4,940 nt of DNA. Origin: a virus. Lineage: Duplodnaviria; Heunggongvirae; Uroviricota; Caudoviricetes. How positions within the stretch are numbered: position 1 is the stretch's first letter; each line of letters begins with the position of its first letter. The notes under the pieces were generated by a model, which had not been told where the DNA came from, did not search any database, and was given only the letters and a program-made list of their open reading frames with translations. This document shows positions 1-4,940 of the stretch, piece after piece. Made by a program: the position numbers and the translations under genes. The stretch lies in the IMG/VR virus record IMGVR_UViG_2913177423_000007. One strand, written 5' to 3'.

Positions 1-837
1 GAATTACCGATCCACTACAAAATTGAGCAGACCGAAGACGGCAGGCATTATGTCGCGGGGCTTGGCCTCAGCATGGAGGATACAGAGGAAGGCAAACTGA
101 GCCAGTTCCTGGTTGCCGCTAACCGTATCGCGTTTATTGACCCGGCAAACGGGAATGAAACGCCAATGTTTGTAGCGCAGGGCAACCAGATATTCATGAA
201 CGAAGTGTTCCTGAAGTATCTGACGGCTCCCACCATTACCAGCGGCGGCAATCCGCCGGTATTTTCCCTGACACCGGACGGGCGGTTGACGGCGAAAAAT
301 GCCGATATCAGCGGTAACGTGAATGCGAACTCCGGGACGCTCAACAACGTCACGATAAATGAGAACTGTACGATTAAGGGAATGCTCGAGGCTACTCAGG
401 TCAAAGGTGACTTCGTTAAAGCTGTATCTAAGCCATTCCCGAAAAAAACTGGCTCGTGGGGCAATACGGAAACACCAGGCGGGACGGTTACAGTCACCAT
501 TTACGATGATCATAACTTTGACCGCCAAATCATTATTCCGCCCATTATTTTTAACGGTATGGCGTATGACGATCCGGGGAGCGGTAATAACCCGGGAGGT
601 ACGCGATACACGGGTTATGGTTTTGAAGTTCGCAAAAACGGCGTATTAATCGCATCCAGAGAAACTAAAGGGGCCATTCCCGGTAGTTACAGTGCGGTTA
701 TTGATATGCCGAGTGGTGGTGGTAGCGTCACTCTGGAGTTTAAGATTTTCCAGAAAGGCAATCAGGGCGCAGGTAACATCACAGACTGTACGGTGATTGT
801 GACCAAAAAAGCTGCTTCCGGTATCAGTATCCGTTGA
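1..837 (+). CDS. C-terminal 278 codons of a large tail protein, 5'-truncated by the window edge; most likely the distal part of a J-like host specificity (central tail fibre) protein
   Basis: Frame 1 is open from nt 1 with no stop until TGA at 835-837. The ORF track entry 73..837 is just the first in-frame Met. The protein is Gly/Asn/Thr-rich, like beta-rich fibre distal domains. It sits directly upstream of an Stf homologue, as J does in lambdoid phages. The J assignment rests on synteny and general character, not on a recognised motif. Confidence 0.7.
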
Positions 838-856
838 AATATTTATAACCCCAATA

Positions 857-886
857 CGGGCGCCAGAAATGGCGCCTTTTTTATTT
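857..886 (+). terminator. Rho-independent terminator-like hairpin between the J-like gene and stf
   Basis: GGCGCC (859-864) and GGCGCC (871-876) form a perfect 6-bp GC stem around a 6-nt loop AGAAAT, followed by TTTTTTATTT (877-886). It lies 20 nt after the upstream stop codon. Confidence 0.6.
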
Positions 887-897
887 GTGGAGTGAGT

Positions 898-3273
898 ATG
901 GCAGTACAGATTTCAGGTGTGCTGAAAGATGGTGCGGGAAAACCAATACAGAACTGCACTATTCAACTGAAGGCAAAGCGTAACAGCACCACGGTACTGG
1001 TGAACACGGTGGCCTCTGAAAATCCTGATGAAGCCGGGCGTTACAGCATGGATGTTGAGTATGGCCAGTACAGCGTCACCCTGTTGGTTGAAGGTTTTCC
1101 GCCTTCACATGCCGGGACCATTACCGTCTATGAAGGTTCCAGACCAGGTACGCTGAATGATTTTCTCGGTGCCATGACGGAAGAGGATGTCATGCCGGAG
1201 GCATTGCGTCGTTTTGAGGAAATGGTGGAAGAAGCGGCACGCAACGCCGAAGCCGCCTCTCAGAGCGCAGCGGCGGCAAAGAAATCCGAAACTGCAGCGG
1301 CTTCATCGAAGAACGCGGCGAAAACCTCAGAAACGAATGCAGCTAACAGCGCACAGGCGGCAGCGTCCTCGCAGACTGCATCGGCAAACTCCGCGACAGC
1401 AGCCAAAAAATCAGAAACCAACGCGAAAAACAGCGAGACAGCCGCAAAGACGAGCGAAACCAACGCAAAGTCCAGCCAGACGGCAGCGAAAACCAGCGAA
1501 ACGAATGCCAAAGCCAGTGAAACTGCGGCGAAAAGCAGTCAGGATGCAGCAGCTGAAAGCGAGAGTGCGGCGGCCGGTTCTGCGACTTCAGCAGCCGGAT
1601 CAGCAACTGCTGCGGCTAACAGCCAGAAAGCTGCGAAGACGAGCGAAACTAACGCAAAGTCCAGCCAGACGGCAGCGAAGATCAGCGAAACGAATGCTAA
1701 AGCCAGTGAAACTGCGGCGAAAAGCAGTCAGGATGCAGCGGCCCAAAGCGAGAGTGCCGCAGCTGGTTCTGCAAGTGCGGCTGCTGCTTCTGCCACTGCA
1801 GCAGCCAACAGTCAAAAAGCAGCAAAAACCAGTGAAAACAACGCAAAGGCGAGCGAGACTGCGGCGGCTAACTCGGCGAAAGCATCCGCTGCAAGCCAGA
1901 CGGCTGCAAAAGCAAGTGAAGACGCAGCCAGAGAGTATGCAAGCCAGGCTGCGGAGCCGTATAAACAAGTTTTGCAGCCGCTTCCCGATGTGTGGATACC
2001 GTTTAACGATTCACTGGATATGCTTGCTGGCTTTTCGCCTGGTTATAAGCAAATAACTGTAGGTTATGATGTTATTAAAATGCCATCCGATAAGGTTGTT
2101 AGCTTCAAACGCGCATCAGGTGCAACATACATTAATAAATCAGGAGTATTAACCGTTGCTGAAGTTGACGAACCGCGATTTGAACGAGAAGGTTTGCTGA
2201 TTGAAGGACAAAGAACCAACTATCATCTTAATTCACTTACACCATCTAAGTGGGGAGCTACAACAAGTGTAACTATAACAGAAAGTGGTGTTGATGAGTT
2301 TGGCTTTACTTATGGGCGGTTTCAAATAAAGGACGAAAAAATTGGGACAAATACGACAATGAATATCGCTGCGGTTTCAGGAGGAAGAGGTGTCGATGTT
2401 ACTGGAACTGAAAAGTATGTTACAACATCATGTCGTGTAAAAAGCGATAGTGCTAATATACAATGTCGTATAAGATTTGAAAGATATGACGGGTCCGCAT
2501 ATTTTTATCTGGCAGATGCATATCTTAATATAACAGATATGTCCATTAGAAAAACGGGAGGAGGGGCTGCAAGAATAACCGCCCGAGCGGAGAAAGAATC
2601 TAATGGATGGATTTATTTCGAGGTTACATATCAATCTGAAGCTATTGATAATATGGTTGGCTCTCAGATCCAAATTGCTCCACCTGTTTCACCTGGAACT
2701 TATTTGGGCGGGGAATATTTGGATGTTACGACACCACAATTTGAAGGCGGCTCATGCGCATCATCTTTTATCATTTCCGATACAGTTGCATCAACGCGAG
2801 CAAGCGATATTGTTACATTGCCTTGCAAAAATAACATGACCAGCAAACCTTTAACCTGCATGGTTGAAGTGAATAAAAATTGGTCTATAGCACCAAATTC
2901 CGCGCCTAGAATTTATGATATAACAGGATTTAAAACAAAAGACGACGCTTTTGTTTTTGCATTCAGAAATACAGCAGGTAGTGTAGGAACTCCATATGTT
3001 CAATTTGGTAATCCAATATCATTTCCACCTGGAAATTACCCAAGAAAGATTATCGCTGTATATAGAATAAAAAGCGATGGCAAGTTTCAGGCTGGCTGCA
3101 ATGGGGTTTTATCAACACCAGCATCAACAACGTGGAAGAGTGTTAATGGTGCTACAGGTATAAGGATTGGAGGTCAGACTACAGCCGGCTTACGTCATTT
3201 ATTTGGTCATATCAGGAATTTTAGAATATGGCATAAAGAATTAACCGATGCGCAAATGGGAGAGGTAATATAA
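898..3273 (+). CDS. stf: Side tail fibre protein, 791 aa: lambda Stf-like N-terminal region, Ala/Ser/Thr/Lys-rich repetitive shaft, divergent AT-rich C-terminal distal region
   Basis: The N-terminus MAVQISGVLKDGAGKPIQNCTIQLKAKRNSTTV...GRYSMDVEYGQYSV...GFPPSHAGTITVYE...PGTLNDFL closely matches my recollection of lambda Stf (MAVKISGVLKDGTGKPVQNCTIQLKARRNSTT...). The following KTSETNA(K/R)SS repeats are also as in lambda Stf. ATG at 898 is preferred over the track's GTG at 892 because GGAG at 889-892 gives a 5-nt spacer. Stop is TAA at 3271-3273. Confidence 0.9.
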   Translation: MAVQISGVLKDGAGKPIQNCTIQLKAKRNSTTVLVNTVASENPDEAGRYSMDVEYGQYSVTLLVEGFPPSHAGTITVYEGSRPGTLNDFLGAMTEEDVMPEALRRFEEMVEEAARNAEAASQSAAAAKKSETAAASSKNAAKTSETNAANSAQAAASSQTASANSATAAKKSETNAKNSETAAKTSETNAKSSQTAAKTSETNAKASETAAKSSQDAAAESESAAAGSATSAAGSATAAANSQKAAKTSETNAKSSQTAAKISETNAKASETAAKSSQDAAAQSESAAAGSASAAAASATAAANSQKAAKTSENNAKASETAAANSAKASAASQTAAKASEDAAREYASQAAEPYKQVLQPLPDVWIPFNDSLDMLAGFSPGYKQITVGYDVIKMPSDKVVSFKRASGATYINKSGVLTVAEVDEPRFEREGLLIEGQRTNYHLNSLTPSKWGATTSVTITESGVDEFGFTYGRFQIKDEKIGTNTTMNIAAVSGGRGVDVTGTEKYVTTSCRVKSDSANIQCRIRFERYDGSAYFYLADAYLNITDMSIRKTGGGAARITARAEKESNGWIYFEVTYQSEAIDNMVGSQIQIAPPVSPGTYLGGEYLDVTTPQFEGGSCASSFIISDTVASTRASDIVTLPCKNNMTSKPLTCMVEVNKNWSIAPNSAPRIYDITGFKTKDDAFVFAFRNTAGSVGTPYVQFGNPISFPPGNYPRKIIAVYRIKSDGKFQAGCNGVLSTPASTTWKSVNGATGIRIGGQTTAGLRHLFGHIRNFRIWHKELTDAQMGEVI
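1260..1930 (+). repeat. Low-complexity coding repeat region (the Stf shaft) with roughly 7/14-residue periodicity
   Basis: Translation is dominated by reiterated motifs such as KTSETNAKSSQTAA, KTSETNAKASETAA and KSSQDAAAESESAA. The reverse strand stays open here only because of GCN-rich codons. Confidence 0.8.
1441..1818 (+). repeat. In-frame tandem duplication, 2 x 189 bp (63 codons each): copy 1 at 1441-1629, copy 2 at 1630-1818, with a degenerate partial third copy from 1819 to about 1866
   Basis: Direct alignment in the sequence: gccgcaaagacgagcgaaaccaacgcaaagtccagccagacggcagcgaa... at 1441 against gctgcgaagacgagcgaaactaacgcaaagtccagccagacggcagcgaa... at 1630. The first ~110 nt of each copy are near-identical. 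Differences are mostly synonymous third-position changes. Confidence 0.85.
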
Positions 3274-3554
3274 TGCGAGATTTAATTATCAAATTCACAG
3301 ACAAGGCCGACTTTTCGGCCTTTATGGATAGCATTGGTTATTATGATGACGAGATGATGCAGAACGATGTTCTCATTGATGTAATAGGTGACGTATACAA
3401 AGAAACAGGCGAACTTACTGAAGATGGCGAGCCGGTATGTGTTAAGGAAGACGGATATTTTGTAAACGTGCGCATCATTAATGATTCGCAAATATCGTCA
3501 TTATTCGATGAATACGCGGTTGCTGTTGAGCATCAACTTCGTGGCTGGATGTGA
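3273..3554 (+). CDS. Hypothetical small acidic protein, 93 aa, translationally coupled to stf; function unknown
   Basis: Its ATG at 3273-3275 overlaps the stf stop TAA at 3271-3273 (TAATG). GGGAGAGG at 3258-3265 is a Shine-Dalgarno sequence 7 nt upstream. The protein is Asp/Glu-rich with no predicted transmembrane segment. I recognise no family and see no resemblance to lambda Tfa. Confidence 0.6.
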   Translation: MRDLIIKFTDKADFSAFMDSIGYYDDEMMQNDVLIDVIGDVYKETGELTEDGEPVCVKEDGYFVNVRIINDSQISSLFDEYAVAVEHQLRGWM

Positions 3555-3563
3555 GGAAGAAAA

Positions 3564-4604
3564 ATGGCTACATCGACAGTAATTCCTGATGACATCAAAA
3601 CGCTAAAATCCGATGTTAGCAAATTAAAAAACGATCAAGGAAGCTACGTAACAAAATCATATGTAGACAGCAAAAATGAAACCGTTAATGACTGGTCTGC
3701 TGCATGGTATCAGCAGGTACTGCCAACTAGCGGAGCTATATTTGGGCGAAAACTTCGCTCAACTCACAGGACGGCAGGTGTTGAGGATGCGTATTGCGAA
3801 CTATACCTTAAAAAATGGATAGACAGCCCAGGGAACGCAATGGCGCGCCTTAACCTGAACGATAACGGTGAAAATATTTGCTGGGATTTTACCAACCTTT
3901 ACGGCGGAACAATGATCTTCCCTGGTACTTCAGGTTATCTGAAAATGGGGAACTGTCTCATGTCGTATGGTGTGCGGGGAAGTAACGCGCTTATTAAGTT
4001 TGATAATACAGACACATTACAAATCAAATACGCTAATCATGGGTCAACCATGACATTAAACACACAGGGAACCGCTCACGCTGGCGTAACAACTCGACTA
4101 TGGGGCAATTCTAGCCGTCCGGTTGTTTATGAAGTTGGCGTAGATGAGGCTCTGTATATGTTCTACGCACAGAAAACTACCAGCAATACCTACGAATTAA
4201 CGGTTAACGGCGCGTGCAATGCAAGTGCATTTAATCAAGGCTCTGACCGGGATCTGAAAGACAACATTCAGGTGATCGATAATGCAACTGACCGCATCCG
4301 TAAAATGAACGGCTATACATACACGCTTAAAGAAAACGGTATGCCCTATGCTGGTGTCATTGCACAGGAAGCTCTGGAAGCCATCCCCGAAGCCGTAGGG
4401 TCTATGATGAAATATCCAGACGGTGGGAGTGGATTAGATGGAGAAGAAGGTGAACGGTATTACACTGTAGATTATTCTGGTGTTACTGGCTTGCTTGTTC
4501 AGGTAGCCAGAGAGTCAGACGACAGAATAACAGCACTGGAAGAAGAAAACGCAGAATTAAGACAAAGGTTATCTGCAATTGAGGCGGCGCTTGCGTCTAA
4601 ATAA
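3564..4604 (+). CDS. Short tail fibre/tailspike-like protein, 346 aa, with a C-terminal peptidase S74-type intramolecular chaperone autoproteolytic domain
   Basis: ATG at 3564 has AGGA at 3554-3557 six nt upstream. The C-terminal region reads ...NQG-SDRDLKDNIQVIDNATDRIRKMNGYTYTLKENGMPYAGVIAQEALEAIPEAV...RITALEEENAELRQRLSAIEAALASK. This matches the S-D-x-R-L-K ... GxIAQEλ..λPEAV signature of the chaperone domain of phage K1F endosialidase and T5 L-shaped tail fibre, and ends in a coiled-coil-like tail. Stop is TAA at 4602-4604. Confidence 0.8.
   Translation: MATSTVIPDDIKTLKSDVSKLKNDQGSYVTKSYVDSKNETVNDWSAAWYQQVLPTSGAIFGRKLRSTHRTAGVEDAYCELYLKKWIDSPGNAMARLNLNDNGENICWDFTNLYGGTMIFPGTSGYLKMGNCLMSYGVRGSNALIKFDNTDTLQIKYANHGSTMTLNTQGTAHAGVTTRLWGNSSRPVVYEVGVDEALYMFYAQKTTSNTYELTVNGACNASAFNQGSDRDLKDNIQVIDNATDRIRKMNGYTYTLKENGMPYAGVIAQEALEAIPEAVGSMMKYPDGGSGLDGEEGERYYTVDYSGVTGLLVQVARESDDRITALEEENAELRQRLSAIEAALASK
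4242..4601 (+). other. Predicted S74 intramolecular chaperone domain (residues 227-346), with putative catalytic Ser227 (nt 4242-4244) and Lys232 (nt 4257-4259)
   Basis: SDRDLK is encoded by tct gac cgg gat ctg aaa at 4242-4259, with the Ser-to-Lys spacing of five residues recalled for the endosialidase dyad. The downstream GVIAQEALEAIPEAV block fits the family. Self-cleavage would leave a mature protein of about 226 residues. Confidence 0.65.
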
Positions 4605-4610
4605 TATTAA

Positions 4611-4633
4611 GGGGCCGAGCGCCCCGTTTTATT
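4611..4633 (+). terminator. Rho-independent terminator after the S74-domain fibre gene
   Basis: GGGGC (4611-4615) pairs with GCCCC (4621-4625) around a 5-nt loop CGAGC, followed by GTTTTATT (4626-4633). It starts 7 nt after the stop codon. Confidence 0.6.
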
Positions 4634-4646
4634 GGGTAGGATGAAA

Positions 4647-4940
4647 ATGGATATAACACCTTTCCTTCATGCGCTTTGTGCTGTGGCTGCGCAGCTACTG
4701 ATTGGTCTTTTTACCGGGAACTGGGCTTACGGAGCGATAGCCGGTTGTACGTTCTTCATTGCGCGTGAACACACCCAGGCAGAATATCGCTGGATTGAAA
4801 TGTTCGGGCATGGCAAGCGGATTAACATGCCGTGGTGGGGCGGTTTTGATCCACGCGCGTGGGATGTAGCAAGCCTGATGGATTTTTCTGTGCCGGTGGT
4901 GGCGTGTCTGCTGGTCTGGGTATTTATCCGTTCAACATAA
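4647..4940 (+). CDS. Small hydrophobic protein of about 97 aa, predicted integral membrane protein of unknown function; possible moron or accessory gene
   Basis: ATG at 4647 is preceded by AGGA at 4638-4641 with a 5-nt spacer. An in-frame ATG at 4641 is an alternative; the track's TTG start at 4632 lies inside the terminator T-tract and is unlikely. Hydrophobic stretches ITPFLHALCAVAAQLLIGLF, WAYGAIAGCTFFIA and FSVPVVACLLVWVFI suggest 2-3 transmembrane helices. Stop TAA is at 4938-4940, the last three bases of the window. GC is about 50-60%. Confidence 0.55.
   Translation: MDITPFLHALCAVAAQLLIGLFTGNWAYGAIAGCTFFIAREHTQAEYRWIEMFGHGKRINMPWWGGFDPRAWDVASLMDFSVPVVACLLVWVFIRST

Follow-up and report, generated by a model that had tools for sequence, protein, structure and literature searches.

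A lambdoid E. coli prophage in IMG/VR record IMGVR_UViG_2913177423_000007 (Caudoviricetes) has a side-tail-fibre locus in which the gene stf encodes the side tail fibre (Stf). The stretch that was analysed, here called the window, is 4,940 nucleotides (nt) long and has five open reading frames (ORFs), every one on the + strand; coordinates are positions in this window. GC content drops inside stf, and sequence comparisons support a fibre in which a lambda-type anchor and shaft are joined to a C-terminal module of 433 amino acids (aa; Stf aa 361-793) from an AT-rich phage gene pool. The full explanation that we favour, and consider likely, is a modular Stf with a portable, lectin-like module whose allele is closest to those of T5-like phages, and which forms part of a two-piece and possibly branched fibre. 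An earlier interpretation made from the letters alone (the sequence-only reading) had proposed a mosaic fibre with an AT-rich foreign distal part. Its observation is borne out, and its interpretation in part: the exchanged unit is nested, the small ORF that follows stf is conserved, and the module is likely a lectin-like head that could act as a branch point.

Composition and relatives of the two parts of Stf

In sliding windows of 200 nt, GC content is 55-59% across nt 1100-2000, 36-42% across nt 2000-3700 and 43-53% beyond, with a mean of 39.7% over nt 1972-3270. The sequence-only reading had quoted 32-37%, taken from single 60-nt lines; the drop is genuine, but these values are slightly low. 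A maximum-likelihood change point falls at nt 1960 when all bases are used and at codon 383 (nt 2038) when third codon positions are used, which places the break, as had been claimed, just after the shaft near the peptide AREYASQAAEPYKQVLQPLPDVWIPFNDSL (Stf aa 346-375). A second change point at about nt 3690 indicates that the low-GC block extends slightly beyond the end at roughly nt 3560 proposed before. That extent holds approximately, with the qualification that the 93-aa ORF after stf and the second fibre gene after it are only intermediate in GC at third codon positions (GC3; 0.42 and 0.41), and less AT-rich than the distal module. The 97-aa membrane ORF that follows them, with a GC3 of 0.52, is back at lambdoid values.

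Within Stf, GC3 is 0.51 for aa 1-360 and 0.26 for aa 361-793. By section, the anchor has 0.53, the shaft 0.49 and the distal module 0.26, with the lowest value (0.25) in its core. GC at four-fold degenerate sites is 0.51 upstream and 0.24 in the distal module. None of 1000 permutations of codon order reached the observed log-likelihood ratio of 28.9, and the null maximum was 9.0. The drop inside Stf is therefore real by sliding window, change point, GC3 and permutation.

Part of the raw step is due to amino-acid content, because the shaft is rich in Ala (36%) and Ser (19%); its GC is 0.565, and a GC at second codon positions (GC2) of 0.68 inflates upstream GC and exaggerates the step. It is conceivable on these grounds that the entire drop is a by-product of GCN codons in an Ala-rich shaft followed by a beta-rich globular domain, with no change of origin, but such an explanation is extremely improbable. 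The step remains at third positions and at four-fold sites, the permutations do not reproduce it, the anchor is not Ala-rich and yet has a high GC3, and the DNA homology partners switch exactly at the GC break. The synonymous-site step is independent of amino acids, and a purely amino-acid-driven step is ruled out by the four-fold degenerate sites.

The N-terminal part of Stf is lambda-like, in agreement with the earlier claim. It contains the PF08400 domain, Stf aa 3-330 are 58% identical to lambda orf-401 (E 2e-77; orf-401 aa 1-342), the anchor DNA is 83% identical to lambda stf, and the gene lies directly downstream of J. The shaft includes a 189-nt (63-aa) unit present in 2.3 copies (nt 1429-1866). 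Shafts of relatives differ by insertions and deletions of whole repeat blocks, with about 60 aa missing in IdasGreatGrand and more in phage 21, which suggests that fibre length may vary by repeat recombination.

A separate search with the distal half leads to a different lineage, an outcome that the sequence-only reading had named as support for a swap. The closest match in an isolated phage is gp22 of the T5-like phage IrisVonRoten, with 76% aa identity over all 433 residues. The DNA from nt 1975 to 2920 is 86.8% identical to the lateral tail fibre gene of this virulent phage, and the left edge of the match coincides with the GC break. Isolated phages that match the core (nt 2235-3165) at 80% nt identity or more are T5-like only (IrisVonRoten, mar004NP2, KS_S14, SPLA5b and PMBT29), and their identity is 86-88%. 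The GC3 of the module lies within the range of the IrisVonRoten genes (0.24-0.29), whereas adjoining lambdoid genes have 0.49-0.55. The low GC3 of the window's allele would thus be explained by its nearest alleles, which are those of AT-rich T5-like virulent phages. A horizontal swap from a low-GC donor, as the sequence-only reading proposed, is upheld in that the module is mobile and has T5-like GC3 and T5-like DNA matches. A single swap with one breakpoint is not: a single recombination junction was rejected, as relatives break at about nt 1676-1785 (in the shaft repeats), 1975, 2234, 2920, 3160 and 3607.

Relatives at 95-99% identity carry a truncated 3' fragment of tfa just after the membrane ORF; pinQ comes next in the copies from E. 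coli strains B and C. The fragment, sometimes accompanied by pin, looks like the footprint of an overwritten lambda-type Stf-C/Tfa with its invertible segment.

The junction is not peculiar to the window, because full-length collinear homologues that have this GC step are widespread; the sequence-only reading had itself named such a finding as one that would refute it, and the idea of an unusual one-off swap is abandoned accordingly. Stf matches the 793 positions of the tail-protein family phrog_1419 (at NCBI, 'prophage tail fiber N-terminal domain-containing protein') on both sides of the break, with aa 3-360 aligned to positions 1-358 (E 6.9e-191) and aa 361-793 aligned to positions 359-793 (E 4.3e-184). 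An exact search of public assemblies gave no identical Stf protein. The best collinear relative is the prophage of E. coli FDAARGOS_536, which has 95.2% nt identity over nt 881-4919, and 18 complete E. coli genomes match over at least 80% of the window. The 78 prophage loci recovered through the 93-aa ORF have at least 14 module allele classes, and every class exhibits the step (module GC3 0.27-0.38, shaft GC3 0.46-0.49). Among complete E. coli genomes, 83 have the window's own core allele at 99% nt identity or above, strains B and C among them. By these comparisons, the junction is an established and recurrent design that belongs to an already catalogued family and is common in E. coli prophages.

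A given module allele is not tied to one downstream fibre gene: the two assort independently. Two loci (L076 and L077) combine the window's module allele (99%) with a different third gene, and most loci combine the window's third gene with other module alleles. In E. coli BLR(DE3) (L091, 3111-6468) and E. coli C (L092, 2661-6468), the window's module allele (99.5% nt) sits in a Qin-like cryptic prophage beside pinQ, ydfK and ynfT, and is accompanied by a different, 234-aa second fibre and then a tfa 3' remnant. The strain B stf is truncated by IS3.

Alternately, the module might be native to enterobacterial prophages and have been exported to T5-like and other virulent phages, in which case its low GC3 would reflect gene-specific selection or mutation bias. 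The step in all 14 prophage allele classes indicates that the junction is old and widespread in lambdoid prophages, and the window's allele, so nearly identical among E. coli genomes, is just 86-88% identical to T5-like phages. However, four-fold-site GC of the module is 0.24, against 0.51-0.61 for the lambdoid genes on either side, and in IrisVonRoten the GC3 of the module agrees with that of its neighbours. Moreover, the GC3 values of the prophage alleles are as expected for imports at various stages of amelioration or from donors of 39-45% GC. Export from prophages is therefore an improbable explanation of the shared module, and import from an AT-rich pool is preferred.

The distal module and its nested variability

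Judged from its relatives, the distal part of Stf is a portable C-terminal module shared across several coliphage lineages. It is matched by 2576 database proteins (E < 1e-5) and by 1425 cluster representatives at the 50% level (E < 0.001). Among the matches listed, it lies at or near the C terminus, behind N-terminal parts of 0 to about 1080 residues. Isolated phages with the module belong to Tequintavirus, Nonagvirus, Drexlerviridae, Dhillonvirus and Vequintavirus (rV5-like) or are among many lambdoids, and in one prophage the module occurs behind a P2 gpH-type N terminus. Direct comparison of the distal 433 aa with lambda orf-314 and Tfa gave no significant similarity, and Caudo_TAP is not among the Pfam matches of any ORF in the window. 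The sequence-only reading was thus right that the distal region exceeds 400 residues and is unlike the lambda Stf C terminus.

Three records that carry this coliphage-type fibre module, OR849447.1, OR847806.1 and MG065652.1 (hits H135, H112 and H108), are labelled 'Listeria phage LM 4-14-1', 'Listeria phage LM 4-11-1' and 'Campylobacter phage C11', respectively. OR849447.1 matches at 88% nt identity, like T5-like coliphages. The Listeria- and Campylobacter-labelled records are probably mislabelled or contaminated entries, and not examples of true cross-phylum transfer.

The predicted monomer model of the module is confident and compact, with an all-beta, concanavalin-A-like fold of the lectin or carbohydrate-binding-module (CBM) type. 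It is structurally similar to solved lectin or CBM domains, including pentraxins and LamG domains; a sequence search for solved structures detected none for the module. Stf aa 436-637 match the NCBIfam family NF048003 (GTA_spike_fiber; E 1.5e-13, 51.7 bits with a cut-off of 36). The RcGTA head spike fibre binds capsular polysaccharide (PMC10218006). Given the lectin-like predicted fold and the spike-fibre domain, the most likely ligand of the module is a polysaccharide of the cell surface, for example O-antigen or capsule. The likeness to the RcGTA protein consists of this domain and would extend to its capsule binding. In contrast to RcGTA, the domain of Stf is on a tail fibre and not on a head spike, it spans some 200 of the module's 433 residues, and neither the host nor the particle of RcGTA is related to those of the present Stf.

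The module has a nested pattern of conservation, as seen against five relatives with divergent alleles (four lambdoid phages and Nonagvirus ESCO3). The joint (aa 361-450) is 66-86% identical to these relatives, and the tail of the module (aa 751-793) is 56-93% identical. The core between them (aa 451-750) has mostly 20-55% aa identity per 30-residue bin (range 16-73%). At the DNA level, Tritos and PhiR46_1 are 93% identical to the window up to nt 2234 and 90-94% identical from nt 3166 on, and have no blastn match to it between these points. Nonagvirus ESCO3 also shares a block of 90-94% nt identity that starts in the module tail. Within the joint, R69, G74, E78 and N83 are invariant across 63 homologues, and many remote homologues share the joint only. 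The variable core is what would be expected of a ligand-binding surface under diversifying selection, and the conserved flanks would be natural sites for homologous recombination.

The small ORF, the second fibre and their proposed arrangement

The 93-aa ORF is translationally coupled to stf, as its start overlaps the stf stop codon in the sequence TAATG. A homologue lies directly 3' of the module-bearing fibre gene in 80 of 80 viral loci, and the same position is occupied in IrisVonRoten, Warwickvirus swan01, rV5-like JeffSchatz, Nonagvirus ESCO3, phage 21 and a P2-like prophage. Because the protein is 86-89% identical across prophage loci whatever the Stf allele, the 93-aa ORF belongs, by these identities, to the conserved frame and did not arrive in a swap along with the window's allele. 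The sequence-only reading had the small ORF arriving together with the distal part; the linkage in position is confirmed, and the joint exchange is not. Neither Pfam nor NCBIfam has a match for the protein, and the 120 database relatives listed for it are all 'hypothetical protein', 'prophage protein' or nameless.

The second fibre gene starts 9 nt after the 93-aa ORF and has the ribosome-binding site GAGGAAG before its ATG. Its product begins with a conserved motif, is variable in the middle and ends in an intramolecular chaperone. The latter, a Peptidase_S74 domain (PF13884) at aa 227-278 that begins with SDRDLK at aa 227 (from nt 4242), is a predicted self-cleaving chaperone with a Ser...Lys motif. 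Conservation of the first 15-20 residues (MATSTVIPDDIKTLK) extends over lambdoid, Nonagvirus, T5-like, Warwickvirus and P2-like versions. Despite this shared motif, the middles are unrelated, as in IrisVonRoten gp24, swan01 and the P2-like prophage. Against PDB sequences, the second fibre has a single weak match, to the long tail fibre of phage S16 (E 0.0026), in the chaperone region.

The DNA match to IdasGreatGrand at nt 3163-3607 runs from the module tail through the small ORF and breaks off after codon 15 of the third gene. From such boundaries and gene orders, it appears that the module and, usually, the second fibre gene move as a cassette of which the 93-aa ORF is always a part.

A P2-like prophage (L093 44-3999; GCA_024165985.1) has a gpH-type N terminus fused to the module and then a 92-aa ORF. 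Its third gene, which was missed by the gene caller, has the MATVTTIPADITNLK motif followed by a gpH-type distal part, and a Tfa-family gene is next. The gpH repeat TATKLKTARKIN.VSFDGS.DI.LT occurs just before the module and again just after the third-gene motif. With the repeat on both sides, the locus looks as if the cassette was inserted into an intact single gpH fibre gene.

The 97-aa membrane ORF closes the lambdoid cassette and is present downstream in loci long enough to show it. Its phage 21 homologue is annotated with two transmembrane domains. In the T5-like, Warwickvirus and rV5-like loci examined, the cassette is not followed by this ORF, and none is evident in the Nonagvirus locus. 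The protein could be the product of an exclusion or lysogenic-conversion gene.

In the arrangement that we favour, the lambda-type anchor would fix Stf to the tail tip and the repeat shaft would extend from it, both being of lambdoid composition. Fusion at about nt 1975 would add the portable 433-aa module, each chain of which may fold alone into a compact lectin-like unit, so that the Stf trimer would end in three lectin-like heads that likely bind surface polysaccharide. Exchange of the hypervariable core by recombination in the conserved flanks would create new specificities. The trimer might also offer a docking site for the second fibre, through a joint in which the conserved tail of the module, the 93-aa protein and the N-terminal peptide of that fibre come together. 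The outcome would be two binding specificities per side fibre, with no need for a Tfa-type chaperone. The sequence-only reading had treated the distal module as the receptor-binding part of Stf; this agrees with the predicted lectin-like head, and the module is probably not the sole tip, as a second fibre with a conserved N-terminal motif accompanies it.

Alternately, the module might be the sole receptor-binding tip of Stf, the 93-aa protein a dedicated non-virion chaperone that replaces Tfa, and the 346-aa fibre a separate protein attached elsewhere on the tail tip. The small ORF occupies the position of tfa in lambda, is coupled to stf, and follows the module in all lineages examined, irrespective of the third gene; phage 21 has Stf and a 92-aa ORF with no third gene. 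However, five lineages (four kinds of siphovirus and a P2-like myovirus) have kept the third gene's N-terminal motif alongside the module and the small ORF. Docking on lineage-specific tail parts is unlikely because the motif is conserved across completely different tail architectures. The third protein of the P2-like prophage bears the distal half of gpH, as though a cassette had been inserted into one fibre, and in the published IrisVonRoten model Gp24 is attached to the proximal fibre (10.1101/2024.09.12.612763). We thus consider separate attachment rather unlikely, and docking on Stf the better reading of the second fibre.

The GC step, the gene order, the homologies, the predicted fold and the nesting of variable and conserved parts come directly from the analysis; binding of glycans, second-fibre docking, the part played by the 93-aa protein and the direction of transfer are inferred from them. 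Several points weigh against the two-piece model. Docking on Stf is proposed from sequence and analogy, and the structure prediction for the module covers the monomer only. Phage 21 has the module and the small ORF and no second fibre, so the module can be a terminal head alone, which keeps the chaperone-only alternative alive. For the 93-aa protein, a shallow alignment, with all sequences 80% identical or more, gave a structure model too poor to use (mean pLDDT 55.5), and among the matches listed no relative is annotated. With respect to origin, we infer the direction of transfer from composition alone. Other module alleles are higher in GC3 (0.33-0.39), which means that the pool is not uniformly T5-like. 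Also, about 240 nt of the core (nt 2921-3158, Stf aa 677-756) have no match at 80% or more in any isolated phage record.

The piece at nt 2921-3158 is found in E. coli prophage copies only; the T5-like phages, whose match covers the remainder of the core, do not reach 80% in it either.

A broader and more tentative proposal, which we hold to be somewhat less probable than its negation, is that the lectin-like module, the 93-aa protein and the peptide MATxTVIPxDIxxLK form a portable 'branching kit' for any tail-fibre gene. The P2-like prophage would be a case caught in the act, because the gpH repeat precedes the module and follows the docking motif. If the proposal is correct, insertion into lambda Stf, T5 Ltf, P2 gpH or rV5-like fibres would make the fibre two-piece and add a glycan-binding head to it, and the 93-aa protein would belong to a class of fibre joints or assembly factors that has not been described before and that takes the place of Tfa.

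Gene map and known systems

The features of the window are collected in Table 1. The stf ORF encodes 793 aa from GTG 892 (VSMAVQ...) and 791 aa from ATG 898. The latter is probably the true start because relatives begin with MAVQISG at the corresponding Met, and it gives the length of 791 aa stated in the sequence-only reading. The C terminus of J (GC3 0.55) is 58% identical to that of lambda J. Since this region is the receptor-binding one, the receptor of the central fibre is probably a variant other than the LamB specificity of lambda. The gap between J and stf (838-891) is 54 nt and has no lom gene. A lom gene is found at this position in lambda, IdasGreatGrand, PhiR46_1, the FDAARGOS_536 prophage and E. 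coli C; Tritos also lacks it.

Table 1. Features of the side-tail-fibre locus, with the basis of each assignment
Feature	Position (nt)	Strand	Basis
J gene 3' end (central tail fibre / tip attachment)	73..837	+	Ig_GpJ_C E 1e-25, Phage_Tail_Tip E 2.4e-18 (Pfam)
stf, side tail fibre gene	892..3273	+	ORF list; phrog_1419 end-to-end match
Stf lambda-type N-terminal anchor, aa 3-133	898..1290	+	PF08400 phage_tail_N E 6.6e-67
Stf Ala/Ser-rich repeat shaft, aa 134-360	1291..1971	+	Tandem repeats, composition
Conserved joint, N-terminal part of distal module, aa 361-448	1972..2234	+	Motif PLPDVWIPFNDSL ... EPRFEREGLLIEGQRTN; holds GC break
Hypervariable core of distal module, aa 449-758	2235..3165	+	Flanks match Tritos and PhiR46_1 by blastn, core does not
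Conserved C-terminal tail of distal module, aa 759-793	3166..3270	+	Ends ...LFGHIRNFRIWHKELTDAQMGEVI
93-aa acidic ORF	3273..3554	+	phrog_1361 (function unknown), E 1.7e-43
Second, short fibre, 346 aa	3564..4604	+	PF13884 E 3.4e-14; phrog_4563 over full length
97-aa predicted membrane protein	4647..4940	+	phrog_1443 E 1.6e-57; ORF list has TTG 4632 start

The lambda (Ur-lambda) Stf shares with the window the anchor, the start of the shaft and the location of the gene downstream of J. In contrast to lambda, the window lacks an orf-314-type C-terminal part, Tfa, and lom between J and stf, and the stf region of lambda has no comparable GC3 step (0.53, then 0.48).

The most similar arrangement is that of IrisVonRoten (Bas32, BASEL), for which a published model has a proximal gp22 with a C-terminal galectin-like domain and a distal gp24 attached to it (10.1101/2024.09.12.612763). 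IrisVonRoten gp22 ends in the same lectin-like module as the window's Stf; gp23 is a 92-aa ORF in the same position as the 93-aa ORF, with 41% identity to it; and gp24 starts with MVTKTVIPTDITKLK, where the second fibre of the window has MATSTVIPDDIKTLK, and has a C-terminal intramolecular chaperone. However, the N-terminal anchor of gp22 is of the T5 type and that of the window of the lambda type, and no membrane ORF lies downstream of the IrisVonRoten cassette. Also, gp24 is a 'T-shaped' protein of 574 aa with an extra Gp12-like receptor-binding domain. The 346-aa second fibre of the window lacks the roughly 230-aa insert of gp24, and no Gp12-like family is among its Pfam or listed PHROG matches.

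Genetically established branched fibres with two O-antigen specificities are formed by LtfA and LtfB of the T5-like phages DT57C and DT571/2; the joint of DT57C was deduced from similarity to phiEco32 gp14 and gp15 (PMC4728585, PMC10713586). The likeness is one of concept: a proximal protein has its own receptor-binding region and an attachment site for a fibre encoded by the adjoining gene. In DT57C, by contrast, no small ORF is described between ltfA and ltfB. Exchange of C-terminal receptor-binding parts on a constant anchor is also the principle of lambda-P2 STF chimeras (10.1101/2022.09.30.509847). The window resembles mosaic tail fibres in general in its constant N-terminal anchor and C-terminal exchange, and the P2-like prophage likewise has the module on a gpH N terminus. 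However, the unit here consists of a module with a nested hypervariable core, a small ORF and the N terminus of a second fibre, and not of a domain with Tfa.

The locus is an expected instance of tail-fibre mosaicism, common rather than surprising. Side-fibre modules set which O-antigen or capsule types can be reached by a phage or a phage-derived delivery particle. The joint (nt 1975-2234) and the module tail (nt 3166-3270) are natural fusion points, and a Tfa-independent cassette that occurs on lambda-, T5- and P2-type anchors could help to retarget lambda-based vectors. The locus also documents exchange at the DNA level (87-88% identity) of temperate lambdoid prophages with T5-like phages that are strictly virulent.

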